Positions 8,052-25,702 of a DNA stretch of 25,702 nt are shown piece by piece (within the stretch, counting starts at the first letter, position 1; each line of letters begins with the position of its first letter). Source of the DNA: a virus (Duplodnaviria > Heunggongvirae > Uroviricota > Caudoviricetes). Below the pieces are notes generated by a model. That model had not been told where the DNA came from, did not search any database, and worked only from the letters and a program-made list of their open reading frames with translations. The position numbers were made by a program, and so were the translations under genes. Where the stretch lies: IMG/VR virus record IMGVR_UViG_3300048586_000134, positions 1-25,702 of that record; one strand, given 5' to 3'.

Positions 8052-9038
8052 ATGGCACAGGCTTCTTTTGGTTACTTTGGGATTGGTGTCGAAACGGTTC
8101 CTGGTACTGCTGTCGCTCCGACAAAGTTCCTACCAGTTCGCGACGTTGACTTCCCAATTGAAAACAACTTCATTGAGATTCGTGAAATCGCTGGCTCGCG
8201 TCAGCGTTACTCGAACTATGATGGACCGCTTCGCCCGAATGTCTCCTTCTCGACATCATTCTACCCTGTAGGCGCGATGGGTGTTATCCTCCGCGCTCTC
8301 TTTGGTAGTGTTTCGACGGCGGCTGAAGGCTCATCAGCAACCGCATTCCGACACACCTTTGGTGACGCGGCAACGCTTCCTAGCCTTTCCGTTGAGCGTT
8401 CCGACGCTCGTGGTGCTGGTCAAGGTGTGCTGCTTCAGCGTCTTAATGGTGTCAAGATCGAGTCGGTTGGCTTCTCGTGCAACTACGGTGAAGCGGTCGA
8501 TGTCTCCGTCTCTGGACAGGGACTTGACTTCCCTTCGACTCCTGGCTCCAAGCCAGGATCGATCACCTACCCTTCGGTCGATCCGTTCATCTTCTCGGGT
8601 GCAACGGTCTCAATTGATGGAACACCAAATTCGCTCTTCAAGAGCATCGACTTCGAGTTCACCAACGTTCTTGAGCGTCAGGAGTCGCTACGTGGCGCTC
8701 GCACCGCATACAAGATTTACGAGGGTGGCCTGACGTGTACCCTAAGCGGCACGCTTATCTTTGAAGACCTGACGCTCTATAACAACCTCAAGAATAGCAC
8801 ATCCTTCTCGGTTGGCGCACTCTTCGAGGGAGCAGTGATTGACGTTCCAAATGACATCCGCTATGCAGCAGAGTTCGTTTGGCCGAACGTGAAGGTTTCG
8901 ACCTTCGGCATTCCAATGACCGCAGGTGAGGTCATCGAGGCAGACGTGGAATTCCAAGTCTCGTTCGATTCGGGTATTGATGGTATTGTTGACGCATCGA
9001 TTGTCAACCTTGAGCCAGCAGCAACCTACAACACCTAA
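8052..9038 (+). CDS. Major tail (tube) protein
   Basis: FGYFGIGVETVPGTAVAPTKFLP, HTF...LPSLSVE, NGVKIESVGFS, PFIFSGATVSIDG and KSIDFEFTN are typical siphovirus tube motifs. Strong SD AAGGAG. Precedes the chaperone and tape measure genes. Confidence 0.9.
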   Translation: MAQASFGYFGIGVETVPGTAVAPTKFLPVRDVDFPIENNFIEIREIAGSRQRYSNYDGPLRPNVSFSTSFYPVGAMGVILRALFGSVSTAAEGSSATAFRHTFGDAATLPSLSVERSDARGAGQGVLLQRLNGVKIESVGFSCNYGEAVDVSVSGQGLDFPSTPGSKPGSITYPSVDPFIFSGATVSIDGTPNSLFKSIDFEFTNVLERQESLRGARTAYKIYEGGLTCTLSGTLIFEDLTLYNNLKNSTSFSVGALFEGAVIDVPNDIRYAAEFVWPNVKVSTFGIPMTAGEVIEADVEFQVSFDSGIDGIVDASIVNLEPAATYNT

Positions 9039-9874: not shown

Positions 9875-12800
9875 ATGGCAAGAACAATCAATATCGATAT
9901 TAATACAACAGCCGATCTTGCAGCGCTGACAAGTCTCCTTCGTGGAATCAACACTGTCAAGCGCTCCCTGACAGGCTTCGCGAATTCCAAGACAGGAAAC
10001 TACTTCAAGGATATCGCGGATAGCGCCAACAATCTTGCAAAGGCGATGGATCGTCTGGCGGCTGCACAAGAGAAGCAACAAGCCTCTGCCAAGAAAAGCG
10101 CGACCAGCGCAAGCAAACAGGGCAAGGAAATCAACGAAACCGCGCAAAACTATCGGGAGCTATCAAGAAGTCTCGGTAACCTGAACGGTTTCTTGCGACA
10201 GTCACAGAATATGATGGTTGCACAAGGGCAGCAAGTACGCAAGGTTGACCAGCAATTCGACGCACTTGAGCGCTCTATCCGAGAACTCGGAGAGGCGGAA
10301 GCGGAACTCAACCGTCTCCGCCGAACTGGACGTGCGACAGATGATCAGCGAACGCTCGCAATGACTCGCTTCTCTGAGGCAGCAGCACGAGCGAGAGCGG
10401 CCCTGACAAACCTGAACCAGTCACAGCGGTCGATCATTAACTTCGATGATAATATGTCTCGACAGTTGACGGATTTCATGACGAAGATTCGTCAGATGCA
10501 GGACATGAAAGACCTCGATTTGATTCCAGAGGGGCAAGCAGCCCGATTCGAGTCAGAACTTCGTCAGATGCAATTCGCCGCTCGCGAACTTCAACAGAAG
10601 GCGCGTGATGCTGGCACGACACTACAGCAACTCGACTCAGCTATTGGCATGTCGAATGATGTGGTTCGTCGCGCCACGGCTGGCAAGCAGGAATACACAA
10701 ATCAAATCAGACAGAACACAGAAGCAGCCAGAGCGTCAACGGCTGCATGGCGCACCTTTGGTCAGAGTATCACAAGCGTTCTCGCCCCAATCAAAAACTT
10801 TGTCAATGCTCTTCGTCAGATTGCTTCGAATCTTACCCAAGGCGTAAGGAATGCACTGAATTCGATCACACGTTCTATCAGCACCTTTGGTAGCACGGCG
10901 GGATCAGCCTTTGCAAAACTGCGATCTACAATGAGCATGGCTGGGGGTTGGTTTAGCACCTTCGCGCAACGTGTCCAGCAGAGCATGAATGCTTCTCGTC
11001 AAGCGGTTACAACCTTCTATAATGCGGGTTGGTCGCTCCTGACGAGTGGTTATATGGCGCAGTCGTTCGGTACGGGTATTTTCCGTGGCTTGAGCGATAA
11101 TCTCAATCAATATATGGATTACGAACGTCAGCTTATGAAGGCAACGATTGCGGCTGGTAGCTTCGAAGGAACAGGCGAGCAGGGAACACTCACCATTGAT
11201 CCGAAGATCGTTCAAGAGATGATCTTTGGTATGCAGCGTGGTACGCTTGGTGCCGCTCCGCTCCGTTCGTTTGATGCCGCGCAACTTGCAGAAGGTCTCT
11301 ACTACTACGCATCCGCAATCGGTCAGCCGATTACGGAACAGAACATGGGGCAACTGGCACCGATCATCGGTAATATTATGTCACTGTCGCAGGTTTCTGG
11401 TGCAGGACTGGAAACAACCGTCAAGGCTGTTCTCAACACGGCTCTTGAGTTTGGCTTCGATCCTCGTGCAACGGGCGATGCTGAGCAAATGGGCGCTCTT
11501 GGAAACATCGCGGCTCAGATTGGTTGGCTCTCTAACATTTCCACGATGGAAGTTCCAGACATTGCTGAAATGTTCAAGCAAGTCGGTCCTATGGCAAACC
11601 TCCTCGTTGGTGGTCAGGGTGGCGGCTTGAATGATACCATGCTCCTCGCCTTCCTCGCATCTGAAATGGGTCTGCGTGGTAGCCGCGTGGGTACTGGTCT
11701 CAACCAAGCCTTCATGACGCTTCTCGATCCAACAGACAAGAACCTTGAAACCGCTTCTCGCTTCTTTGGCATCGAAGCCTCTCAGGAGGCATGGGACGCA
11801 TTCTTCAAAGACTCGGAGGGACGACTCGAAGGGGGAATCCCTGGACTGTTTGAGAAAATTGGACAGATTCCGAAAGAACAGCAAGCACAATTCCTTGCAG
11901 AACTCTTCACAACCAACGCAACCCGTAACGTGCTTGCTATGCAGGCTGCACTAGAAAAGAACGGCGGTTGGGATGCGATCATGGAAGAGACGAGACTGGC
12001 AACGGGTGATCCGCAGCGTTGGCTCTCTCAGGCTATGGCAGCGACCAACGATACGGTCTTCGCAAGCATGCAGAACATGAAGAATGCATGGTTTGCGATC
12101 CAGACTGAAATCATCGACGGTATCAGTGGTCCCTTCAAAGGTGCTTTGAATGGAATTGCAGAAATCTTTTGGGAGATTGCTGACGTTGTTCGCGCAAATC
12201 CTTGGATCGCTGAACTTGTTGCTTCGATTACGACGGCAATTGCAGCGGTCTCCTCGTTCATTGGCGTTCTCTTTGTCATGAGTGGTTCGGTTCTTCTCGT
12301 TCTGAAGGCATTCCAGATGCTCGGAGGATCACTTGGTCCTGCGGTCTTCTTCCTGCTTTCGGCGGTGAAGGCGGCTGTCTTGCTCGTACCGCTTCTGGCG
12401 GCTCTGGCGGCAGTCGGAACCATGCTTTACATTGCATGGCAAAACAACTTCTTGGGTATTCGCGATTTCGTTGATGGTATGCGACAAACCCTTGATGTTG
12501 GAGAACTAATGCAGTCCATGATGGACCGTATCTATGAAGGCGCACAACTTCTTGGTACGGCGTGGATGCAGTTTGTTTCTGTCTTCCTCCTCGGTATCGA
12601 TGGTCCGATCAACGCTCTTGGTTCACTGCTGACGACATTGTTTGGTCCGCAACTGGCGAACTATTTCCTCTCGACGCTCACGAATTGGAGCAACGGTCTT
12701 AACAACTTCCGCGAAAACTTTGTGGATTTTGTAACCGATCTGCGTAATGGCGCGGGTGCGCTGACAGGTATCGCGGATACCATTCAGGGCTTCCTTGAAG

Positions 12801-15800
12801 TCTTGTTCCTTGGCGGAATCAGTCAAGAAAATCTTGGAGGAATGCGTAATCTAGGAGCATTGCTCGGTATCGAGAACTTTCCGCTTCAGATTCACCGTGC
12901 GGCGACAGCGCTCAACGGTTTCCTCGACTCCGCCGCTGGCTACTTTGTCGGCTTCCGCGACATCATCGCTGGCATCTTCAATCAGATTGGGAATAACCTT
13001 ACGCGCATCTTCCGTGGTTTGACCTCTAGCGTCGGTCTCGGCGCGATTCGTGACGCACTCACAGGGTTCGCGATGGGCTTTGGCTCTGCGATCCTCACTG
13101 CTGTAAGAGCAGTTGAACTCCTGACGCGTGCGCTGGCAAACCTTGGACGTGCTGGGAGATGGATGTCTGATCTGCTTGAGCGGGTAACAGGCATCAGCGT
13201 CGGCGTTGGTACGCTGGCGACAGCCGTTGGCGTTCTTCTCGGCGCATTCGCGGGTGGACGACTCCTGGCTGCGATTCTCCCGTTTGAGACATTGCTTGGC
13301 GTACTCATGAGAATTGGTCCGATTATCTCCATCGTCGTCAGTGTCGTTGGTACGCTCCTCACCTCGGTTGGTCTGCTTGCAGCACCGATTCTGGCGGTTG
13401 CAGCAGCGCTCCTGATTTGGGAGAATCGGGCAAACGGCATCGAAGGTGTCATGGCAGGATTGCAAGGTATTCTCGACGGTTTTATCGTTGGTCTCTTTGC
13501 AATCGGGCAGGCTGTTTACTCCGCAGTTGAACCTCTCGTACAGTGGGTAGCGGGACTGCTTCAGAGCCTTGACAGCATGACCGCATTCAATGCAGTTGGC
13601 TTTGCGCTGGCAGCAGTGTTTGCAATGCTGGCGGGTGGCGCAATCCTTGGCGTGGTTGCTTCTCTTGCGCAATTCACGGTGGGCCTGATCACGGCGGCGG
13701 CAACGATTACAGGTGCCGTTCTTGGAGCTATTGCTTCGCTTACTGCGTCGTTTATCAAACTCTCCTTTAGTCTTACCAAAGATGTTCTCACTGCCATTGG
13801 CGCATTCGGTTCTGCTATGGCAACAACAACAGCGGGTGTCGCGGCAAATGGCGCGGTCATGTCAACTGGTCTCATGGCAATCTTCACAAACCCGATTGCG
13901 GCAATTGCAGCCCTTATCGCGGCCCTCTTTACCCTCGTTACAGCGGTAAGCCTCGTAGCGTTTACCATGACAGGAGGCTGGGGAGCCGTTCTTCAGACGA
14001 TGGGCGAATTCATGGATATGGCTGCACCGATCATGATGAACATCATGGAAATCTGGCAGCATGACGCATCGACTGGTATGGCAATGCTCGGAGCAACGCT
14101 GGCAGTCGGTCTTGCAGGCGCAATTGCAACTATGATTGCTCAGGGACCAAAGATGCTCGGTTGGCTCGGTGGTGGCGCTCTCGATCTTCTCGGGGGTCTT
14201 CTACCTGAAGACAGTGCTCTCGGCTTGTTGCTCGGAAAGGGTGCGGACGCAACGCGCTTCCTCGGTAACATGTCCACAATGGGCTTCCAAGCGGAAGTCC
14301 GCGACATTCAGGCAGGCTTCCTCGGCAAGATTTATACCAGCACGCAAGGCATGGTAGACTCCTATGGTGAAATGGATACGGAAGGCGGTATCGGTGGATG
14401 GGCTGATCGGCTCGTCGCAGGATTCACAGACCGTATCTCAAATACTCGATTCGGAAATCTCTGGAATCAGGTACTTGAAGCAATGGGTATGGACCCGAAC
14501 AATCCGAAATTCGGAGACGTTGACTGGAAGAACCTTCTTGGTTTCGCCCAGCTTGACGATTTGATGAATAGCGAAGCGTTCCAGTACATGCCGAAAGAGC
14601 TTCAGGGCTGGATGGAGATTGTTGACGACTGGCAGCAATGGCAGGAAACGGTTGCGCGATTCGGTGGTAACGTCAACATGGCTCGTGGATTCTACGAAGC
14701 CAACAACATGACTGTTCCGAAGCCACCGAACTATGAAGAGTATTGGGCATCTATCTCAGAGCAAATGGATGAAGGTGCGGCGGAAGCAGAGGCAGCGGCA
14801 CAACGAGCAGCAGAAGTTCTACAGCAAATGAATGAAGCGCTAATGGGTGCAGACCTTGGAACCTTCTTGCAGACTTCCTTCATGCCAGAAGGCGGCGGAA
14901 AGTCCGCGATGTCGTTCATCTACGAAAATGCTGAAGCAATTATCAGTAACATTGGTGATGCTGGACCGTGGCTCAATCCTGTCGAACTCCTCGCTGACGT
15001 AGCGGGAGCGGGTGGTGGCAACGTCAATGTGCTCGGCAAGAACGTCCATGAGGCGTTACGACCAGCACTTGAAATCGTCGCACAGCAGACAGGCGTCTCG
15101 ATTGACGAAATGCTGAAGGATATTCCGAAGTTTTACGCACCAGAAGAATTCGTCAATGTGGCGACAGATGACCTCCTCGAAGGTATTGCTACACTGCCGA
15201 AGGAACTCTACCAGAAAGTAGACACGCTCGGGGCGGGCGACTGGACTGAATTCGGTCTTGACTGGCAAGAGCTTACGGATTATGCTATCGGACAGGCAAT
15301 CACAGGAACCGAATGGAACCTTGCTGATTATGTCATGGAAGCATTTGGTGTCTCGGAAGATGAGGCAATCCGCCGACTCAAGGCGGCTGGTCTTTCTGAC
15401 GCGGATATCGATGCTATCGGTAGTAGCTGGTTCGGTGACACAACTTTGTGGGCGCAATCGCTCCAAGGACAGGTCAATGTTATCAATGAAACATGGTGGC
15501 CGATTGTTCAAGGTATGACCGACGACATGAAGGATACAACCATCGAAATCTCGGAAGGTGCGTTCGCGGCTCTCCCTGACTCGGTGAAGACCTCCCTCTC
15601 GGCGCTTGGTTACACCTTTGTTATCGGTGGACAGCAGACGGCAAATCAGGTTGCCGCTGGTCTCGGTGCAATCCAGACAGCGATTCTTGCGAATCACCCT
15701 GAGATTCCACCTGACATTATGTCTGGCATCATGACATCATTGATGAGCGGTGAAGTAGACTTCAGAACGTGGACAGACGAAGCTGGTACTAGCTGGACAA

Positions 15801-17602
15801 CCTTTGTGGACAACATTAACGGTACGGAGATTACGATCCCGACCGCTGATGCACAACCACTCATCTCGGCGGTTAACGAGTCGAAGACCGCTGTCGATGG
15901 GCTTGTCGGTTCGTTGAATACGCTCAAGAACTGGAAGTACGATCCTGGCCTCTTTGGTGGTCAGTACGCTCCATCGCAACAGGAAATGGCAACCACGCCT
16001 GATCCTGGCGGAACGGGTGGTCCTGCTGTTGGTGCGGAGTATGTTGGCGCAACACCAGAAATGGTACGCCAATTCCTCGCAAGCCTCGGTATCCCGACTC
16101 CTGAAGAAATCGATACAGCCGTTGCTGAAGTTTCGACAGCAATCGAAACCTCGGTTACGGAAATTAATCTTGACTCGATTGAACTGTCTGGTTTCGAAGA
16201 TTTTGGTAAGTCTGTTGCTGAAGCAATCGGTAAGGGACTTTCCGACAATCTCGGAACGGCAATCAGTGCAGCGCTGTCAGGACAAACCACAGGCGACGGA
16301 ACTGGCGGTCCTGAGACGGACACTGGATTATTCTCGAATTATGGTAAGCAGTCGGCAGAGCAATTCCGCATTGCATTCACTGAAAATATTAACGGTGAGA
16401 CAAGCCTCTTCAATCCATTCGGAGAGGGCGCGGCAGTCGGTAATCCGTGGGAAACCTTTGGTAACTACGGTACAGACGCAGCAGAAGCATTCCGCACCGC
16501 TTTCCAGACAGGTCTTGAGGGACTGGCTTCTGGACTCGGCTTGCTTGACTTCGCATCGCAAGGCACCACATGGGGCATTGCAGCGGGTAATGCGTTTGCG
16601 GCGGCTTTCCGCTCTTCAATGTCAATTGGAGCAGGCGGGGGAGCACCTATCGGCGCGGATGGAAATCCTGCACCGTACGCTCCTGGCGGCGGTATGGGCT
16701 TTACTGATGGTAGCATGGGCGGAGGAGGCATGGCACCACAGACCATCACTGTCGCGGTCAAGATGGACTTTACCGACTATGACGCTGGGTTGGCAAGCCT
16801 GAACCAAAACCTGATTGACAATGCGGACGCAAATCTGACTGTTGACGCCAAGATGGATGACACAGAATTTATTCGTGTCTTCAACGCTGTCAATGGTTAT
16901 ATTACTACGCTAGGTAACCGAAAAGCCGTTCCTGCGGTCTTGCTTCAAGCGTACGCCTTTGACATGACCTACAATGCAGTGAATGGTAAGCTCGACACTT
17001 TGACACAGAGGATCGCCACACCAACGGTCAACCTGAACGATAATGCTTCAGGACCGCTTGGAACGATCATCGACAGACTGAACAGCATCGATGGACGTGT
17101 GGTGACATCTACCGCAAACGTCAATACGAACAATACCACAACGAACACAGTTCGTACAGTAACGGAGGGTATTGGTCCAACGCAACAACTGGCAACTGGT
17201 GGTTACGTCAACTCGGCCATTCAGCTTGTCGGTGAGCAGGGACCAGAACTTGTGGCATTGCCGCAGGGATCGTATGTGTACAATGCGACGGCAACGGCGA
17301 ATATGATGGACTCACTCGCTTCTCCTGTTGGAGTTGCGATGGACGCAGGCTTCTCGGCTAATGCTCCTCGTTCGTTTAGTAACGGCATTTCGAACATCGA
17401 TGCTGCGGAAATGAAGAGATGGTTGATCGATGCCGCACAAGGTAAGCAAGAAATCCACTACAACATTAATGTTGACGCAATCAACATTTCTAAGGAAGTG
17501 GATATCGACCGTGCACTTGAGCGATTCGACCGACTGACAGGTAACCGAACGGAACTTCTCCGACGCGGTATGGGGACATTCGAGGAACATCGAACAATGT
17601 AG
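9875..17602 (+). CDS. Tape measure protein (2575 aa)
   Basis: Longest ORF, directly after the chaperone. Coiled-coil N-terminus; TP901-type core (AAQLAEGLYYYASA...DIAEMFKQVGPMA...GLRGSRVGTGLNQAFMTLLDPT); long hydrophobic A/G/L-rich segments; C-terminal LATGG.....LVGEQGPELVALPQGSYVYN motif. Confidence 0.97.
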   Translation: MARTINIDINTTADLAALTSLLRGINTVKRSLTGFANSKTGNYFKDIADSANNLAKAMDRLAAAQEKQQASAKKSATSASKQGKEINETAQNYRELSRSLGNLNGFLRQSQNMMVAQGQQVRKVDQQFDALERSIRELGEAEAELNRLRRTGRATDDQRTLAMTRFSEAAARARAALTNLNQSQRSIINFDDNMSRQLTDFMTKIRQMQDMKDLDLIPEGQAARFESELRQMQFAARELQQKARDAGTTLQQLDSAIGMSNDVVRRATAGKQEYTNQIRQNTEAARASTAAWRTFGQSITSVLAPIKNFVNALRQIASNLTQGVRNALNSITRSISTFGSTAGSAFAKLRSTMSMAGGWFSTFAQRVQQSMNASRQAVTTFYNAGWSLLTSGYMAQSFGTGIFRGLSDNLNQYMDYERQLMKATIAAGSFEGTGEQGTLTIDPKIVQEMIFGMQRGTLGAAPLRSFDAAQLAEGLYYYASAIGQPITEQNMGQLAPIIGNIMSLSQVSGAGLETTVKAVLNTALEFGFDPRATGDAEQMGALGNIAAQIGWLSNISTMEVPDIAEMFKQVGPMANLLVGGQGGGLNDTMLLAFLASEMGLRGSRVGTGLNQAFMTLLDPTDKNLETASRFFGIEASQEAWDAFFKDSEGRLEGGIPGLFEKIGQIPKEQQAQFLAELFTTNATRNVLAMQAALEKNGGWDAIMEETRLATGDPQRWLSQAMAATNDTVFASMQNMKNAWFAIQTEIIDGISGPFKGALNGIAEIFWEIADVVRANPWIAELVASITTAIAAVSSFIGVLFVMSGSVLLVLKAFQMLGGSLGPAVFFLLSAVKAAVLLVPLLAALAAVGTMLYIAWQNNFLGIRDFVDGMRQTLDVGELMQSMMDRIYEGAQLLGTAWMQFVSVFLLGIDGPINALGSLLTTLFGPQLANYFLSTLTNWSNGLNNFRENFVDFVTDLRNGAGALTGIADTIQGFLEVLFLGGISQENLGGMRNLGALLGIENFPLQIHRAATALNGFLDSAAGYFVGFRDIIAGIFNQIGNNLTRIFRGLTSSVGLGAIRDALTGFAMGFGSAILTAVRAVELLTRALANLGRAGRWMSDLLERVTGISVGVGTLATAVGVLLGAFAGGRLLAAILPFETLLGVLMRIGPIISIVVSVVGTLLTSVGLLAAPILAVAAALLIWENRANGIEGVMAGLQGILDGFIVGLFAIGQAVYSAVEPLVQWVAGLLQSLDSMTAFNAVGFALAAVFAMLAGGAILGVVASLAQFTVGLITAAATITGAVLGAIASLTASFIKLSFSLTKDVLTAIGAFGSAMATTTAGVAANGAVMSTGLMAIFTNPIAAIAALIAALFTLVTAVSLVAFTMTGGWGAVLQTMGEFMDMAAPIMMNIMEIWQHDASTGMAMLGATLAVGLAGAIATMIAQGPKMLGWLGGGALDLLGGLLPEDSALGLLLGKGADATRFLGNMSTMGFQAEVRDIQAGFLGKIYTSTQGMVDSYGEMDTEGGIGGWADRLVAGFTDRISNTRFGNLWNQVLEAMGMDPNNPKFGDVDWKNLLGFAQLDDLMNSEAFQYMPKELQGWMEIVDDWQQWQETVARFGGNVNMARGFYEANNMTVPKPPNYEEYWASISEQMDEGAAEAEAAAQRAAEVLQQMNEALMGADLGTFLQTSFMPEGGGKSAMSFIYENAEAIISNIGDAGPWLNPVELLADVAGAGGGNVNVLGKNVHEALRPALEIVAQQTGVSIDEMLKDIPKFYAPEEFVNVATDDLLEGIATLPKELYQKVDTLGAGDWTEFGLDWQELTDYAIGQAITGTEWNLADYVMEAFGVSEDEAIRRLKAAGLSDADIDAIGSSWFGDTTLWAQSLQGQVNVINETWWPIVQGMTDDMKDTTIEISEGAFAALPDSVKTSLSALGYTFVIGGQQTANQVAAGLGAIQTAILANHPEIPPDIMSGIMTSLMSGEVDFRTWTDEAGTSWTTFVDNINGTEITIPTADAQPLISAVNESKTAVDGLVGSLNTLKNWKYDPGLFGGQYAPSQQEMATTPDPGGTGGPAVGAEYVGATPEMVRQFLASLGIPTPEEIDTAVAEVSTAIETSVTEINLDSIELSGFEDFGKSVAEAIGKGLSDNLGTAISAALSGQTTGDGTGGPETDTGLFSNYGKQSAEQFRIAFTENINGETSLFNPFGEGAAVGNPWETFGNYGTDAAEAFRTAFQTGLEGLASGLGLLDFASQGTTWGIAAGNAFAAAFRSSMSIGAGGGAPIGADGNPAPYAPGGGMGFTDGSMGGGGMAPQTITVAVKMDFTDYDAGLASLNQNLIDNADANLTVDAKMDDTEFIRVFNAVNGYITTLGNRKAVPAVLLQAYAFDMTYNAVNGKLDTLTQRIATPTVNLNDNASGPLGTIIDRLNSIDGRVVTSTANVNTNNTTTNTVRTVTEGIGPTQQLATGGYVNSAIQLVGEQGPELVALPQGSYVYNATATANMMDSLASPVGVAMDAGFSANAPRSFSNGISNIDAAEMKRWLIDAAQGKQEIHYNINVDAINISKEVDIDRALERFDRLTGNRTELLRRGMGTFEEHRTM

Positions 17603-17614
17603 TAGCAACAGATG

Positions 17615-17642
17615 AGGGGGAGCTAATCACTCCCCCTTTTCT
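17615..17642 (+). terminator. Probable intrinsic terminator after the tape measure gene
   Basis: AGGGGGAG, loop CTAATCA, CTCCCCCT, then TTTCT. Confidence 0.65.
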
Positions 17643-17659
17643 GGACAAGGAGCGTGGCT

Positions 17660-20600
17660 ATGGCGCTGAACCCTTCAGCAATTTCATTTAACGGTACATC
17701 ACAACACGCTAAGCTCTCGGCAAATGCTTCTATCAAGAACATGACAGCCTTCACATGGATGGCTTGGGTTAAAGTAGGAGCAAACGCAAATTCGCCGTAT
17801 AAAAAGCTATATGTGGAGCGACAGGGAACTGGTTCTGGAATCAGATTTGCTGTTAACGCTTATCATAGTAGGCTTCGATTCGAGCTAGCGGTTCAAGATG
17901 GACAAACCGACACAAATTATGACTACCGAACAACATGGGATGACTACTGGCACCACATCGCATTTGTGGCGCGTATCAGCGGCGAGAATCCAACCTACCA
18001 AATGTTCAAGGACGGCTCGCTTGTAGCAGAGGGAACACTTGTCAAGCCTGCTGGTGTCGATAATATCTCGAATACTGCCCCACTTGGAAGTACGATCTAT
18101 GTTGGTAACCATTCTCTGCACACGAGCGGAGGAGAGAGTTTTCTCGCAGATCGTTACTGGCATGGCAAGATCGATGATGTCCTGATCTTTGACGAAGCGA
18201 AGTCAGCAGGAGACATTACCAGCTACTTCTCAAGCAATGATACATGGGATATGGGCGATACAGCAATGTTCTCTTATTGGCGCTTTGACGAAAATACAGG
18301 CTCTTCCACAGTCGATGCTGATAATGGCGGATGGACAGGAACACTCCTGAACAATAACGTTGCAAGTTCAGGGCTTTGGACCATTGATCGTGCATTCCTT
18401 GGCAACGGTACGGTGGACACAACGGCTCCAACCACACCGACACTGCCTGGAACGCCGACGACATCGATCACGGCAGACGGCTTTCGGGCAACATGGATAA
18501 CAACAACGGATAACGTCTACGTGCAGGGATACGAACTTCAAGTATCCACAGTCTCGAACTTTGCCAGCTACACAACATACCACACCCCCAACGGGCAAGT
18601 GACTGAACTGATTACGGGATTACTTCCTAATACGAATTACTATTGGAGAGTGCGTGCATACGATGCTGAACTCAATATGAGTGGTTATACAGCAACACAA
18701 TCACTGACAACATCGAATGTTGCTGATCTGACTCCGCCGAACCAGCCAACGAATGTTACCTCGTCCTCGGTTACGCACTCATCGTTTGCGGTAAGCTGGA
18801 CAGGCAGCACTTCTCCTGATGTGACTGGATACAAGATTGACGTTGGACTTGATCCGAACTTCAATAACTACCTCTCAGGATATCGTAACCGTGACATCGG
18901 CGCAGTCCTGACAACGACCGTTAGCGGCACGTTACCGCTCACCAGTTACTATGTGCGCCTGCGTGCTTATGATAATGACCGTAATGAAAGTCTGGAAACG
19001 GACTACATCCTCGTCCAGACGCCTTCGATTCCTGACCTCATTGCACCGAATGTTGTTGATCCCCTTCCTGCGACGAGCATTACCTCGCGAGCATTTACGG
19101 CAAGCTGGGAAGAGGGTGAAGATAACGTAGGTGTCACAGGGTACTATCTCGATGTCTCAACGGCATCGGACTTCTCCTCATTTGTGACAGGATACCAGAA
19201 TCTCTTTGTTGGAAACGTCACTGAGTATCGTGTAACAGGGCTTGTTCCTGAGACGACCTACTACTACCGAACACGCGCAACAGACGCAGCGGGAAACATT
19301 AGCGGCAACTCGGTTGTCGAAATGGATGTTACAACGCTCATCACTTCGGTTGAAGATGGTGGTATCACGACTGTTCTCATTGAACCAACGGCGGATGCGG
19401 AAGTGCGGAGTGCCAGCGCTTCGACAAACTACGGTTCTGCGACCTCGATTACGGTTGTCGGTAACGGTAGTGCGGCGACACAGGCGGCACACCTTCTCTT
19501 CCCGCTTGACTTTGTGACAGGCAACCTGACCTCAGCAGTTCTGAACATTTATGTCACGGAAGCCTCATCTGTTGCGGCGGCGGCGAAGGCCGACAATGTA
19601 ACCTTTACCGAGTCAACCCTAACATGGACGAATCAGCCTGCGGTTGCGGGTAGCTCGGTTGCCTTTACACCGCTCGCAACGGGCTGGGTAGCGATTCCGA
19701 TTACCTCTCTCCTCCTCGACGGTAAGACAACCTATGATGTTTACCTTTCAACGACAAGTGCGGACGGCTTCACCTTTGACTCGAAGGAAGGTACGAACAA
19801 ACCATATCTCGAAGTTGAATACGACCAGAGTACAGCGACCAAGCTGGATGCGATCAGTGTAGAGGCGGGTTCAAGTGGACGCGTGAACATGAACCGCAAT
19901 CCGAACTTTGAAGGAAATGCCACAACAGGTTATGCTATTTCAGCAGCGGGTGTCACATTGTCTGTTCATGCAACAGAGGGTGTTGAAGGTTCGAAGGCGC
20001 TGTCAGTGGTATCGACTGGCTCAGCGGCAAACCTTGGATTCATTCATGGTGATTCTATCTGGACTCCTGCTTCCTTCGGAGAAACGCTTACCGTTTCGTT
20101 TGCGGCTCGTGCAACGGCAACGGAATCGTTAGTTATCTCGGTGCAACAACGTAATTCAGCAGGATCGCTTCTCTCCTCAACGCTTAAAACAATCTCAGTA
20201 GGGACAACACGTCAACGTTATGTCCACACGGTCGAGATGAATCAAGCAACTGTCGCGTATTTTGTGGTTTACGTGTACAAAGTTGCGGCTGCGGCATTTA
20301 CCGCGTACTTTGACGAATTCCTTTTCGAGAAAGCGTCCTCGTACCTCGGATACTTTGACGGTAACACTCCTGGCGCATACTGGCAAGGTACGGCCAATGC
20401 GAGTTTCTCGGTTATGCCTGTCTCCAAAATCGAAACGTCAACAACGTACCTTGGAGACAGCGACACCGATAACAGTGTTAGCCTCTACTTCAAGCCTTCT
20501 GAAGAAAGTGAGTGGATGACGCATCCTGCTCTCGTTCCTGTCGTCAACCGAACGACGAAGCGATGGGAGTATACGCTTGAGGGTGGTCTTGGTGAGTATA

Positions 20601-22357
20601 ATCTCGTACCGAACCCTGGCTTTGAACTCGATACGGCCAACTGGACTGTTATCAATGGTGCAACTGGCTTTGCTCGACAAGACACTGAGGTATATGAAGG
20701 CAGCTACGCAGCAGTCTTTACTTCTGCTGGTAGCACCTCGGGTATCTGGACAGGTCATATTCCTGTAACGGCAGGCACCGTTCTTCATTGCCGCAATCGT
20801 GTCAAAGGTCCGATTGGGAATGACTTTAAGTTGGTGCTTCGCTTCTATGATGCCGCAGGGACAACACTTCTCGGCACGTCTAACGATGTTATGGGCCAGA
20901 GTCGCTACAGCGCTCTTGACGGAACATGGCAGGAAGCATGGGTTGTTGCGACGGCTCCTGCATCCACGGCATCTGTTCGCGTTGCGCTCACAGCGGTAGG
21001 TATGGCGGGTGGTCCGTACTACATCGACAACGTTCTTCTTGGCTTTGGTGCAAATCTGAATCCATACCGAGACGGCTCCTACCCTGACGCATTCTGGAAC
21101 GACACCGAACACAACTCGGTGACGCACCTGATGATTATGCCAGAGCGCAGCTACGACATTCGTTATGTCTACAGTGATCCTGACGGCTTGATCGACGCCC
21201 CTGGCTCGACAACCGCAGAGATGGTCACAACCTACATAACGACAGCAATGCCTGACAACACGACGACGATTGGAACGATCACAACTGAATCAGATGTTGA
21301 GTCGATCACCGTTCGTGGTGTCTATGTCGGTGACGATAACGAAAACATGACGATGCGGGTTGAGTGGAAGCGTACCGACCTCACCAACTGGAATACGGTG
21401 ACACACGCAGTCAGCCGTGACACCAAGAGCTTTGCGGCGACAATTCCGTATCTGCGTGCAGGAACGTCCTACACCATTCGATTCACCTTCACCGATCCCG
21501 ATGGTGTGTACAACACGACAAATGGTGTTGTGGAGGTGCTGGCGACAACCATGCTCTCCCATACGACTCCTGATGTCATTTCGCGCATCCGCTTCGGTGG
21601 TTTCGTCCTCATGGACAGCGCCGACTACACATCAAAGGTAGGTGTGACTGAACATAATGCCTTTGGATTCCCTGAGCGTCGTCTACAGATCGAAGACCTT
21701 CCTCGTGAGGACGGAGCGATTGAACTTCAGAACCTTTGGGGACGACGTTCGATTTCGATGCAGGGCTTCATTGAAGGAGCAACGAGAGTCGAGCTTGAAC
21801 AGAATCTTCAAGCACTCAAGAGAGCGCTCGCACCACGATTGCAGCGCCTTCAGATCGATACGTTGAACGACACTGGTCGCTACTACACGGCAACCTGTGA
21901 GAGTTTGGCGATTGTGGAGAGTCCAGAGAACATTCGTCACCTGACATGGGATGCTGACTTTGTGTGCGCTGATCCGTTCGCGTACGATACGACCGTCAGC
22001 ACGCTCCCTGAGTTTACGGCGGCACATAATAGTACCGTCACGATCAACAATGTTGGAGATACGCGTGTTCCGCTGCGAATGAATGTGCGCACGACACACA
22101 CCTTCCCTGTCACGTTGTCGATTATTAACTCTACAAGTGGAGAACGAATCAGTCCATCCAAAACGCTGATCAGCGGTGATCGTCTGGTTATCGACAGCAC
22201 GCGCAAGTCAATTACCAAGAATGGTATCGAACTCGATTACCAAGGAGCCTTCCCGCACTTGCTGATGGGAGGCAACACCTTCACGTTCGTCCTCAGCACG
22301 ACGAGCGGAACCCCAACGATTCTTGTCGAGATGGTCTGGCAAAGCCAGTATCTCTAA
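17660..22357 (+). CDS. Giant distal tail (Dit) protein with N-terminal LamG, FN3, DNRLRE-like and carbohydrate-binding modules
   Basis: Start re-called to ATG 17660 (AAGGAG 7 nt upstream). LamG-like domain (FTWMAWVK, WHHIAFV, GKIDDVLIF, YWRFDE) ~17660-18400. Three FN3 repeats (DxxxPxxP...W...GY...L.P.T.YY.R.RA.D) ~18416-19340. DNRLRE-like domain (PTADAEVRS..TNYGS...FDSKEGTNKPYL) ~19370-19822. Two CBM4/9-like domains (NPNFE / NPGFE) at ~19880 and ~20597. C-terminal Dit (PERRLQIEDLPREDG, RRSISMQG, FVCADPFAY, NNVGD, GDRLVIDS, FPHLLMGGN) ~21584-22357. Confidence 0.85.
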   Translation: MALNPSAISFNGTSQHAKLSANASIKNMTAFTWMAWVKVGANANSPYKKLYVERQGTGSGIRFAVNAYHSRLRFELAVQDGQTDTNYDYRTTWDDYWHHIAFVARISGENPTYQMFKDGSLVAEGTLVKPAGVDNISNTAPLGSTIYVGNHSLHTSGGESFLADRYWHGKIDDVLIFDEAKSAGDITSYFSSNDTWDMGDTAMFSYWRFDENTGSSTVDADNGGWTGTLLNNNVASSGLWTIDRAFLGNGTVDTTAPTTPTLPGTPTTSITADGFRATWITTTDNVYVQGYELQVSTVSNFASYTTYHTPNGQVTELITGLLPNTNYYWRVRAYDAELNMSGYTATQSLTTSNVADLTPPNQPTNVTSSSVTHSSFAVSWTGSTSPDVTGYKIDVGLDPNFNNYLSGYRNRDIGAVLTTTVSGTLPLTSYYVRLRAYDNDRNESLETDYILVQTPSIPDLIAPNVVDPLPATSITSRAFTASWEEGEDNVGVTGYYLDVSTASDFSSFVTGYQNLFVGNVTEYRVTGLVPETTYYYRTRATDAAGNISGNSVVEMDVTTLITSVEDGGITTVLIEPTADAEVRSASASTNYGSATSITVVGNGSAATQAAHLLFPLDFVTGNLTSAVLNIYVTEASSVAAAAKADNVTFTESTLTWTNQPAVAGSSVAFTPLATGWVAIPITSLLLDGKTTYDVYLSTTSADGFTFDSKEGTNKPYLEVEYDQSTATKLDAISVEAGSSGRVNMNRNPNFEGNATTGYAISAAGVTLSVHATEGVEGSKALSVVSTGSAANLGFIHGDSIWTPASFGETLTVSFAARATATESLVISVQQRNSAGSLLSSTLKTISVGTTRQRYVHTVEMNQATVAYFVVYVYKVAAAAFTAYFDEFLFEKASSYLGYFDGNTPGAYWQGTANASFSVMPVSKIETSTTYLGDSDTDNSVSLYFKPSEESEWMTHPALVPVVNRTTKRWEYTLEGGLGEYNLVPNPGFELDTANWTVINGATGFARQDTEVYEGSYAAVFTSAGSTSGIWTGHIPVTAGTVLHCRNRVKGPIGNDFKLVLRFYDAAGTTLLGTSNDVMGQSRYSALDGTWQEAWVVATAPASTASVRVALTAVGMAGGPYYIDNVLLGFGANLNPYRDGSYPDAFWNDTEHNSVTHLMIMPERSYDIRYVYSDPDGLIDAPGSTTAEMVTTYITTAMPDNTTTIGTITTESDVESITVRGVYVGDDNENMTMRVEWKRTDLTNWNTVTHAVSRDTKSFAATIPYLRAGTSYTIRFTFTDPDGVYNTTNGVVEVLATTMLSHTTPDVISRIRFGGFVLMDSADYTSKVGVTEHNAFGFPERRLQIEDLPREDGAIELQNLWGRRSISMQGFIEGATRVELEQNLQALKRALAPRLQRLQIDTLNDTGRYYTATCESLAIVESPENIRHLTWDADFVCADPFAYDTTVSTLPEFTAAHNSTVTINNVGDTRVPLRMNVRTTHTFPVTLSIINSTSGERISPSKTLISGDRLVIDSTRKSITKNGIELDYQGAFPHLLMGGNTFTFVLSTTSGTPTILVEMVWQSQYL

Positions 22358-22376: not shown

Positions 22377-22913
22377 ATGGCGATTACGGACAAAAGACGG
22401 TATGAAAAGCGGAAGAGTGAGGGGCGCTGCGTGGCGTGCGGCAAACCGCGCTCTATCCACGAGACGACAATCAAGTGTTCGGACTGCCGTCGCAGGCATA
22501 AGGAAGCGAGCCTTAAGTATATTTATCGGCACAAAGGGAAAGACTGCTGCCAGAGATGCGGTTCAGCACACCTTATCACACAGCCAGAAGGTGCGAAGTG
22601 GCGCTTTTGTGAAGAATGCTTTCTAAAGAAGTTGTCACGAACGCATCTTGGGACAGAGAAGGAATGGAAATTCTTGAAGGAGTTGTTCGAAAGTCAAAAC
22701 GGTTGTTGCTATTATACGGGCGAACGGCTGACTCTCGGCATCAACGCCTCGATTGACCACAAGCTGCCACAGAAACGATTCCCTGCGGTGAAGCACAGTC
22801 CTGACAATGTTTGCTGGTCTACGTTGGAGGTAAATCTTATGAAGAGGGATTTGACGGACACAGAATTTATTAATCTTTGTGCTCAAGTCACGAGGGTAAC
22901 ACAATGCCGATAA
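22377..22913 (+). CDS. Free-standing HNH endonuclease with Cys-rich zinc-ribbon N-terminus
   Basis: CxxC pairs CVAC, CSDC, CQRC, CEEC. HNH core CYYTGERL...SIDHKLP...NVCW....VNLMK. SD AGGAG. Uses AGA/AGG/CGG Arg codons that are uncommon in the flanking structural genes. Confidence 0.88.
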   Translation: MAITDKRRYEKRKSEGRCVACGKPRSIHETTIKCSDCRRRHKEASLKYIYRHKGKDCCQRCGSAHLITQPEGAKWRFCEECFLKKLSRTHLGTEKEWKFLKELFESQNGCCYYTGERLTLGINASIDHKLPQKRFPAVKHSPDNVCWSTLEVNLMKRDLTDTEFINLCAQVTRVTQCR

Positions 22914-25702
22914 AACCCGTTACCGTATTCGACACATTTTCGCGCACACGCACGGATTTGTGGGGTACTGGCGACAGTGGACACACATGGTCGAACACAA
23001 ACAACTCTCGCTTCGATGTGAACGGTTCGGTAGGCACCATCTCGGTGCCTGCCAACCAATCGGCACACATTGCGTACCACAACGGCGAATCCGACACAAC
23101 CTGTCAAGTCTTGACACTCATGCGTTGGACGAGTAGCGCGGCCTCGCCGCTGACTGACGTTGGCCCTGCTTTGAGCCGCATCGATAACTCGACATACTAT
23201 ACGGTGGCGATTCAAGACCTTTACGACGAAGTTGCAATCGTTTTCTACCAGAATGGTACAAGATGGGAACTCAACCGTGCGGCAAAGACCGTTTCGAAGA
23301 ATACGTGGTATTGGGTACGTTTTGAGCGTACTTCGACGGCATTGCGTGCAAAGGTTTGGGCGCAAGGTACTACCGAACCATCTTCGTGGACCGTTACAAG
23401 CGGTCTCTGGTCTGGCTCAAACCCCCCTGCCTCGGGAAATCCTGGCTTCTACGCAAAAGGTAACGCGGATGCGTATAATGTAGAACTCGCAGCCTACTAC
23501 TTCTACAGCGGTGAGGACGACGAACCTGGCGTTCCTGTCAATGATACATTCGAGAGAGGTGTCACAACAGGTTGGGGTATGTCGGATAGTGGTCACGTAT
23601 GGGAAGGAAACTTCTCTCTTGATCCCGCGATCCGAACGAGAGCCGCTGAGGGCTTTGTCAACGATCCTGGCGACGGCTATGCTCAATACTCTATCGATAA
23701 CACCGACGAACACTATGGTTTCATTGGACCAAACCGCAGCACAAACATGGAGATTTACACTGAATTCTCCATCAACTCCGCTGCTGGTAGCACGATTCTG
23801 TATATCGGCCAACGTGGTACAATGGAAGTCGCGAGCGGTGCGGTCTCTGGTTACGGCTATGCGGTGAAGGTTACTTCTGGCGCTACGACCATTCCGATCA
23901 TGAAGAAAACATCGTCGGGTGGTTCGTGGACGCAGGTTGGTACAGCAAGCACGGTAACCGCACTCGTGGCAAATACCATTTATTCGGTGCGTTTTCAGCT
24001 TGTTGGTACAACACTTCAGGCGAGAATTTGGGTAGCAGGAACCGCAGAACCCGCGACTTGGCATTCGACAGGCACCGACTCCTCCATTACTGTTGGCCGT
24101 GCCTTTACAATGATCACACAGACGGTCACAACGACACGTCAGGTACGTTTCTACCGCTTCGATCATACGACTCCGACGCCACAGGCAACAACGACACACA
24201 CCACGACTGGTGCCATTACAACCGCACAACTGAACGACATTTCTGCTACACTGCGAGCAGCGTTCACGAACGACTCTAACTCGAATAACTCAGTAGTTGT
24301 GAGCTATCGTGTAGCGGGTACTCAAACATGGACCACGTTCGGCGGCACAGTTACTAGAACCGCCACGTATCACCAGTTTCAACTGACTGGACTGACTCCG
24401 AACACGAGTTATAACGTTCGCGTAGAATTCTCGGATGCTGACACAGTTGTTGGTACAAACCCTGTTCTCGCAACGATCACGACGACGAATCAAGGCGTTG
24501 TTACGGGAAATGTCACGATCACGGCGGTTGGTCCGTCTACGATAGACGTGGAAGCAACCTACACTGAAGACACGGACAACAACTCGACAGCGACTTTGGA
24601 CTATCGCGTAACATCTCAAACAACCACACTCGGCTCAGACAGCTTCAACGGCTTGACAGGAACCGAACTCTCAACTCATGTTGCTGATCTTGGTCCTGCG
24701 TGGGTCAAGCATCCAACAAGTGCGTCCAATACGTCACTTGCTCTCGTGAACAACCGCGTGCGGATGGTTTCTGATGCCACGAACAAGACGGTACGATACT
24801 ACCAAGACTTCAGTTCGATTGACAATCAGTACACTGTTTCAGCGCACTTTGTCTATCTTGGAGCAATGTCAAATACTGCACTCATTGGTCGCGCAAGTAA
24901 GACGTTGCTCACATACTATGGACTTTCTTACTCTGCCTCAGCAGGGAGATGGGAACTCTATAAGCAGGTTAGCGGCGTGTACACGCTTCTCGGTAGTTTT
25001 GCTGCCGTTGTCAACATCGATGACATTCACGTTGTTGAACTTGTCTTGCGTGATGATTACAAAGCTGCTATCATTGATGGTGTTGAACGCATTCGTTCGA
25101 CGGATAACACCATCGCCTCTGGTGTCCCAGGTTTAGCGCTCAGTTCTATCGTGGGTGCCGCAGAGCTACCCACGGAAACAAATCACGTGCTGGTTGACAA
25201 TTATACAGTGACGACACGTTCTATGGGCGGCTCGTGGACTTCGGCTGGTGCCATGACTGCTGATCGTGTCAACAAGAAATTCACCAAGCAATTGACTGGT
25301 CTCACGGCTGACACGGTGTACGAAGTTCGTGTTACCTACGCAGACACGTTCGGTGTTCGTGGTTTTAACCCGATCAGCGCGACGGCGATGACGACAGGAG
25401 CCGCTTCAGGACTCTTTGCGATTACGTCAACCGTGCAACCAACCTCTGTTGTTCTGGATGTTTTCTATTACTTTGACTCGAACGCAAACTCGTCATTAGC
25501 GATTGAGTATCGTTCAGTCATGGATTTCCTCTGGACAACTGTTCCATCAGGAAATATTCAGGTTGATCGTGGAGCCAAGAAATTCACGACGATCCTTTCC
25601 AGCCTCTCTCCTAACACAACCTATCAGGTTCGGGCAACGATTACCGATCCTGACGGCTTTATTCAAGGACTGCCGTCGCAACTCACTGGTCTGATTACGA
25701 CG
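22904..25702 (+). CDS. Large tail-tip / adhesin protein with lectin-like and FN3-like repeats (3'-truncated; absent from the ORF track)
   Basis: I translated frame 2 from ATG 22904 (MPIKPVTVFDTFSRT...; SD GAGGG) to the window end: 933 codons with no stop. It has two DTF.R...WG.(G/S)DSGH.W...VRF....L.A.(V/I)W..GT.EP..W repeats, three FN3-like repeats and one inserted beta-rich domain. Confidence 0.9.
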   Translation, partial: MPIKPVTVFDTFSRTRTDLWGTGDSGHTWSNTNNSRFDVNGSVGTISVPANQSAHIAYHNGESDTTCQVLTLMRWTSSAASPLTDVGPALSRIDNSTYYTVAIQDLYDEVAIVFYQNGTRWELNRAAKTVSKNTWYWVRFERTSTALRAKVWAQGTTEPSSWTVTSGLWSGSNPPASGNPGFYAKGNADAYNVELAAYYFYSGEDDEPGVPVNDTFERGVTTGWGMSDSGHVWEGNFSLDPAIRTRAAEGFVNDPGDGYAQYSIDNTDEHYGFIGPNRSTNMEIYTEFSINSAAGSTILYIGQRGTMEVASGAVSGYGYAVKVTSGATTIPIMKKTSSGGSWTQVGTASTVTALVANTIYSVRFQLVGTTLQARIWVAGTAEPATWHSTGTDSSITVGRAFTMITQTVTTTRQVRFYRFDHTTPTPQATTTHTTTGAITTAQLNDISATLRAAFTNDSNSNNSVVVSYRVAGTQTWTTFGGTVTRTATYHQFQLTGLTPNTSYNVRVEFSDADTVVGTNPVLATITTTNQGVVTGNVTITAVGPSTIDVEATYTEDTDNNSTATLDYRVTSQTTTLGSDSFNGLTGTELSTHVADLGPAWVKHPTSASNTSLALVNNRVRMVSDATNKTVRYYQDFSSIDNQYTVSAHFVYLGAMSNTALIGRASKTLLTYYGLSYSASAGRWELYKQVSGVYTLLGSFAAVVNIDDIHVVELVLRDDYKAAIIDGVERIRSTDNTIASGVPGLALSSIVGAAELPTETNHVLVDNYTVTTRSMGGSWTSAGAMTADRVNKKFTKQLTGLTADTVYEVRVTYADTFGVRGFNPISATAMTTGAASGLFAITSTVQPTSVVLDVFYYFDSNANSSLAIEYRSVMDFLWTTVPSGNIQVDRGAKKFTTILSSLSPNTTYQVRATITDPDGFIQGLPSQLTGLITT

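Follow-up and report, generated by a model that had tools for sequence, protein, structure and literature searches.

The Dit hexamer nucleates tail assembly together with the tape measure protein (TMP) and Tal (PMC9863714). Classical Dits, such as SPP1 gp19.1 (2X8K), FtbK (9J1K), TP901-1 ORF46 (4V96) and 80alpha gp58 (6V8I), are encoded after the TMP gene and share a two-domain fold. In evolved Dits one or two CBMs are inserted in loops of the galectin domain, and Gram-positive-type Tals consist of an N-terminal hub followed by a C-terminal extension (PMC7291167, PMC9692632). The CBMs of evolved Dits bind host cells, including those of Deep-Purple gp28 (PMC9128512); in OE33PA, a flexible Dit extension of ~10 nm binds the host and touches the cell in cryoET (10.64898/2026.05.20.726473). 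Adhesion-like and carbohydrate-binding domains situated ahead of a central domain have been described for the megatron of RcGTA and roseophage R4C (PMC10276861).

Here we describe a phage locus in which a complete Dit forms the C-terminus of a 1565-aa protein, P0001, behind an array of adhesin modules. This N-terminal adhesin-Dit architecture is real and conserved, and apparently undescribed. Judging from profiles, structural models and analogy, P0001 is likely a Dit hub subunit with a built-in host-adhesion arm, its binding activity and its location on the virion being putative. The window that was analysed comprises 25,702 nt (25.7 kb) from the start of a 127,895-bp (127.9-kb) phage contig, which was classed as complete and has a terminal repeat of 127 nt. 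Ahead of the tape measure the window contains genes for the terminase, portal, protease, major capsid and tail tube, and the relevant features are as follows.

8052 to 9038, + strand: tail tube protein, 328 aa (PHROG290, E 2.9e-34)
9875 to 17602, + strand: tape measure protein (TMP), 2575 aa, assigned by position and length
17615 to 17639, + strand: GC-rich hairpin between the TMP and Dit genes
17660 to 22357, + strand: adhesin-Dit fusion gene, 1565 aa, P0001 (single unbroken ORF, profiles, fold, homologues)
22377 to 22913, + strand: endonuclease VII / HNH-like gene, 178 aa, between Dit and Tal (PHROG1035, E 1.8e-13)
22904 to 25702, + strand: N-terminal adhesin array of Tal, aa 1-933 (profiles, repeats, fold)

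The tail tube protein distantly matches haloarchaeal HHTV-1/2 and Bacillus tail tube proteins, and the syntenic gene in relatives matches Phage_tube_2. The TMP is without a Pfam match of its own, and the syntenic genes in two relatives match PhageMin_Tail. The adhesin-Dit ORF starts 57 nt past the TMP ORF, with an ATG at 17660 preceded by the RBS AAGGAG (17647-17652) and a stop at 22357, so the Dit gene lies directly after the tape measure, where the initial annotation had placed it, and ahead of Tal. The order TTP, TMP, Dit, Tal, 270-aa gene and lysis is kept in all four close relatives, each with an adhesin-Dit and a ~1500-aa Tal gene. The endonuclease gene, which overlaps the Tal start by 10 nt, is missing from the relatives' loci and skipped by the contig of a close relative; among the loci compared it lies between Dit and Tal in this genome only, and is a strain-specific insertion outside the conserved module.

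The initial annotation had read P0001 as LamG, three FN3, a DNRLRE-like domain, two CBMs and FN3-like repeats in front of a Dit. When the protein was examined segment by segment, profiles and fold gave each of these modules an assignment, using an AlphaFold2 model for aa 915-1565 (mean pLDDT 83.5) and profiles for the N-terminal 915 aa.

17660 to 18409, + strand: LamG / ConA-like domain, aa 1 to ~250 (Laminin_G_3 at aa 11-186, E 1.4e-15)
18428 to 19339, + strand: three tandem FN3 domains, aa ~257-560 (Pfam fn3, three stretches, E 4e-17)
19373 to 19819, + strand: CBM96 / DNRLRE domain, aa 572-720 (CBM96 PF24517, E 2.2e-22)
19835 to 21256, + strand: FN3-like domain composed of aa ~726-741, 916-977 and 1156-1199, with two inserted CBMs
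21257 to 21559, + strand: intact FN3-like domain, aa 1200-1300, and a short linker (Z 10.7-11.2 to FN3)
21575 to 22357, + strand: complete classical Dit, aa ~1306-1565, with ring and galectin-like domains (profile and fold)

The FN3 region also matches FN3 domains of titin, PTP and chitinase, and aa 572-720 score 57.5 bits on DNRLRE NF033679 (cut-off 34), with matches to 8wab and 7vbo. A feature search of the ESM Atlas with the full protein gave leads below 0.9 only, and a profile search of the array detected no trimerisation or chaperone domain.

The two CBM modules were indeed present, as CBM22/4/16-like jelly rolls at aa ~742-915 and ~978-1155, but they do not stand in series as had been assumed: both sit in loops of one FN3-like domain. 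They are paralogues (E 3e-12); the first matches the CBM22 of Xyn10C by profile (E 6.8e-6), and the fold of the second resembles CBM22/16/4 (Z 14.7-15.6). On an HMM built solely from intact FN3-like repeats of the Tal gene, aa 916-977 spliced to 1156-1200 scored 51 bits, compared to 29 and 21 bits for the separate halves and 55 for the intact repeat. A splice that included strand A gave no gain in score; the assignment of an insertion site to the A-B loop is based on two homologues, P0110, which is without both CBMs and has the FN3-like host domain whole, and P0022, which is without the first CBM only. The intact FN3-like domain at aa 1200-1300 matches the repeats of the Tal gene as well (E 3e-18).

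The C-terminal part is Dit-like by both profile and fold, as had been proposed for residues ~1309-1565; we place its start at ~1306. It matches PHROG33 (E 6.5e-25), SPP1_Dit (E 1.3e-7) and, weakly, Sipho_tail, and the order of the latter two, Sipho_tail then SPP1_Dit, corresponds to a ring (belt) domain followed by a C-terminal galectin-like domain. The model aligns with residues 1 to 272 of the monocin FtbK (Z 18.4, rmsd 2.5, 228 aligned) and with residues 9 to 253 of the SPP1 Dit (Z 17.3, rmsd 3.0, 221 aligned), and further fold matches were to Douge, 80alpha, TP901-1 and p2. With 260 aa, the domain has no large insertion compared to classical Dits and no internal CBM, and it is the only Dit match in the complete genome. 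The view that the Dit is intact and that the whole array is an N-terminal fusion was thus borne out. Three copies were predicted to join head-to-tail with a score of 0.60 (best control 0.00), possibly owing to the likeness to solved rings, and the runs showed at least 92% contact agreement at a pLDDT of at least 86; 20 of 30 true pairs and 1 of 23 single chains attained the mark used for such complex scores. In the predicted interface, belt residues 28-56 (numbered from aa 1303) lie on residues 74-137 of the neighbour. Since the first 27 residues are not among the interface residues, a free Dit N-terminus fits the prediction, without being proven by it.

Compared to the classical Dits listed above, P0001 has the same two-domain fold (Z 14.6-18.4), the same gene position and predicted belt-mediated head-to-tail contacts; the difference is that the solved chains match from their N-terminus or close to it, whereas P0001 has ~1305 aa ahead of its Dit. 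With the evolved Dits of Lactobacillus J-1, skunaviruses, S. thermophilus cos/pac phages, Bacillus Deep-Purple (gp28) and Oenococcus OE33PA, the last with two beta-sandwich domains and a CBM on a flexible host-binding arm, P0001 shares CBM decoration, as its chain does carry CBM folds. However, the cited examples measure 383-548 aa, whereas the P0001 array is N-terminal, ~3 times longer and contains four lectin-type domains, and the galectin domain is intact. CBMs in galectin-domain loops, the criterion for evolved Dits in print, are absent, all CBMs lying upstream. By analogy, P0001 may work like an evolved Dit, yet without its defining internal insertion.

One printed remark appeared to describe a similar layout, namely evoDits with an 'N-terminal CBM' in Bacillus phages phBC6A51 and BMBtp2 (PMC9128512), and no other printed case was found. 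The GenBank annotations, however, cover only the C-terminal part of each Dit, which accounts for the remark: each annotated protein is the C-terminal piece of an ordinary Dit with an internal CBM. In phBC6A51 the Dit is split into two overlapping ORFs, with the ring domain in the upstream, unannotated ORF (L019 18972-20469), and in BMBtp2 it is cut by the end of the record, with the ring domain lying across it (L020 36205-36932 and 1-787). The 643-aa Dit of BMBphi was also discarded as a parallel; it shows no similarity to P0001 and appears internally inserted. Gp36 of HHTV-1 (861 aa, noted 'Laminin G domain') is encoded directly after the TMP in a halovirus with a related tail tube family, but it gave no score on the Dit profile and has another layout, with a LamG-like region near the C-terminus by inspection. 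By eye, gp36 (L017 8333-10918) resembles Dit-type N-terminal repeats followed by the C-terminal LamG. We found no description of the N-fused adhesin-Dit layout in the open-access literature, nor a cultured phage with this layout. A tblastn search of cultured phages with the whole protein or with the Tal hub gave no match, and with the Dit alone only the Dits of Geobacillus GBSV1 and Bacillus phage 1 (25%).

The Tal gene, 1523 aa, which runs to genome position 27475 so that its hub lies beyond the window, turned out to be built in a comparable manner; neither this matching array nor the nesting of the CBMs had been part of the initial annotation. Its array begins with two paralogous ~200-aa domains, for which there was no meaningful Pfam or PDB match, which is not evidence of a new fold, followed by three FN3-like repeats, which belong to one family with those of the Dit protein; one of the three is split by a levanase-CBM-like lectin (4azz, E 6.5e-10). 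In the model of the last ~580 aa (pTM 0.84), a gp27/Tal hub is interrupted by a single CBM, with Z scores of 19.4 to Listeria gp18 (3GS9), 19.2 to Mu gp44 and up to 21.8, matches that also include hubs of contractile systems, and with a profile match to Prophage_tail (E 2.7e-7). Extending from aa ~943 of the 1523 aa to the C-terminus, the hub departs from the usual N-terminal placement. Evolved Tals have a CBM-decorated Tal/gp27 hub as here, but in the Gram-positive type the hub is N-terminal, whereas here it is C-terminal and without a C-terminal spike. Adhesion domains placed before a central hub domain have a partial precedent in the megatron, which differs in using a separate hub protein and separate fibres, whereas here a complete Tal hub lies C-terminally behind ~930 aa. 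A search among long proteins gave 68 Tal homologues in which, fragments apart, the matching region is preceded by 720-1280 aa. Two IMG/VR phages (L007 8730-11291 and L008 8774-11593) combine a plain 258-aa Dit with a Tal that carries an N-terminal extension of ~440-520 aa, without Pfam matches, suggesting that N-terminal extension is commoner on Tal than on Dit.

How widespread is the fusion? A P0001-type Dit was found at the C-terminus of 21 proteins of 979-1601 aa, of which 19 span the array from LamG on and 2 are without the first ~560 aa. A full HMM search added homologues of 1242-1825 aa and four proteins of ~2600-2740 aa in which the Dit is preceded by ~2200 aa and followed by ~200 aa. 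These four form a sub-lineage (P0119, L015 10001-23428, and P0120-P0122); in L015 the Tal homology extends over two adjacent genes, one of 1439 aa with a weak SH3 match at its end and a second of 404 aa. In a quick IQ-TREE analysis of 123 Dit domains, 51 N-fused Dit proteins, which come from independent metagenomes, and one contig-edge fragment formed a single branch (SH-aLRT 96). Lengths were available for the best 150 of 3122 Dit-like matches, and further N-fused Dits may exist beyond these. No stand-alone Dit was found in this clade: P0103 and P0251, which seemed to qualify, are short proteins on contigs of 1.2-1.5 kb, P0103 starting at base 2, and L023 was not counted, as a TAG replaces a Trp codon that is otherwise invariant, in the first 20 bases of its contig. 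Two FN3-fused Dits of ~660 aa fall elsewhere in the tree, among plain Dits, so that the N-terminal Dit fusion seems to have arisen at least twice. These two (P0152, L016 324-2321, and P0177, L022 5969-7954) have ~400 aa upstream of the Dit, and in L022 a 147-aa gene lies between the TMP and the FN3-fused Dit. Across the full-length homologues, identities were 24-41% for the inserted CBMs, the most divergent parts, and 43-65% for the Dit; LamG, at 50-66%, and the first FN3 are conserved to the same degree as the Dit. The fast divergence of the CBMs, together with their gain and loss, is as expected for host-range modules.

The source of the sequence is metagenomic, and the sequencing runs that were searched each contained only a small share of its words (at most 15%), so that no habitat was assigned, and pattern scans of IMG/VR and GTDB gave no close relative. 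An assembly chimera, or a mis-called read-through of two separate genes, might be suspected for this reason, but the same fusion recurs in dozens of independent assemblies (ENA, JGI, NCBI, Logan) at 36-50% overall identity. Moreover, the contig of a close relative, from an unrelated run, covers 18501-22341 except for one diverged stretch of equal length and bridges aa ~280 to the end, across the fusion junction, and no in-frame start with an RBS precedes the Dit in five close loci. We consider this explanation exceedingly improbable; it is refuted by the independent homologues.

Because Dit and Tal both bear N-terminal chains of lectins and linkers, the hub itself probably carries host-gripping arms, on both the Dit and the Tal, in these uncultured large tailed phages. 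A more elaborate version, towards which we lean somewhat, is an 'inside-out' tail tip, in which long N-terminal arms with many lectins (6 + 3, with ~36 lectin-type sites) would be anchored C-terminally by Dit and Tal, with neither separate fibres nor a Tal spike, and with the host range set by insertion and deletion of CBMs in FN3 loops. The Dit domains would join head-to-tail through the belt hairpin, as predicted, and six subunits would form a ring on which, going by Dit biology, the TMP, Tal and tail tube assemble. Each subunit would trail from its N-terminus a flexible, beads-on-a-string arm of about seven serial domains, in the order, from the ring outward, FN3-like, FN3-like with two side CBMs, CBM96, three FN3 and a LamG tip. 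We estimate an arm length of ~25-30 nm at ~4 nm per domain. With 4 lectin-type domains per arm, a ring would display 24, and a Tal trimer would add three similar N-terminal arms. The arms would most likely capture host surface glycans reversibly and multivalently before the end formed by Tal and the 265-aa protein commits to infection, and the Dit and Tal arms would replace separate side fibres. Such a function is a plausible extension, by analogy, of a known principle, the CBM-decorated hub.

It should be mentioned that LamG, FN3 and DNRLRE domains also serve non-glycan roles. The arms could stay on the virion mainly as a structural collar or spacer, for example folded back along the tube or bracing the Dit to Tal, or could bind a protein or S-layer rather than glycans. 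The conservation of LamG and the first FN3 at the level of the Dit, unlike typical receptor-binding tips, would fit this, as would the finding that few aromatic residues of the two inserted CBMs are conserved outside their core; variable surface aromatics are, however, equally expected when ligands diversify. Given four distinct lectin-type folds per chain, the modular gain and loss of CBMs and the precedent of the evolved Dits, we regard this alternative as unlikely. Another scenario is that the fusion is a polyprotein, whose cleavage would release a fibre or soluble adhesin from a classical Dit ring. Phage structural proteins are commonly processed by proteolysis, and a short, poorly conserved Thr/Ser-rich linker with a pLDDT below 50 is located just before the Dit. 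Yet this linker is only ~10 aa long and has no conserved motif, the array has no detected trimerisation or chaperone domain, no unfused member of the clade was found and Tal is fused likewise. We consider such cleavage very unlikely. An adhesion arm that remains attached to the hub is therefore the reading we prefer.

If so, N-terminal fusion would be a third, stable route of hub decoration beside insertion in the galectin domain of Dit and C-terminal extension of Tal, with the N-termini of both Dit and Tal serving as attachment points for arms of 700-2200 aa, and the Dit N-terminus appears to tolerate very large fusions. The annotation of such genes can now be corrected, as they resemble fibres or FN3 proteins so that the hub is missed. 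Among the arm modules are new candidate CBMs, and their ligands could help to identify the host. As for other clues to the host, the endolysin resembles amidase/glucosaminidase clusters that are mostly from Bacillota, and no spanin was apparent by eye. The only genome match of the endolysin, a 3-kb contig in a Competibacteraceae MAG, was dismissed as a host indication, since this contig is probably misbinned.

Some other genes deserve mention. The conserved gene of ~265-276 aa after Tal (P0024, L001 5483-6280, genome 27482-28279) had no Pfam, PHROG or NCBIfam match and is a candidate peripheral baseplate or receptor-binding protein. Beyond the window there is a 3274-aa ORF at genome 114660-124484, and no other large fibre gene or paralogous copy of the arm modules was found in the genome. 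In the relative L003 the lysis genes are followed, from 24122 onward, by a gene for an additional CBM_4_9/LamG protein of 1234 aa that is not present in this genome. Finally, the hairpin at 17615-17639 folds, together with the intergenic stretch, at -25.3 kcal/mol, and was not called as a terminator in a terminator scan. GC-rich hairpins between the TMP stop and the Dit RBS were present in 4 of 6 loci, with differing sequences (the others at L003 9934-10003, L005 576-622 and L015 9924-10003), and were missing in L004 and L006, whose TMP and Dit genes abut. The hairpin could be an attenuator or an RNA-processing signal.
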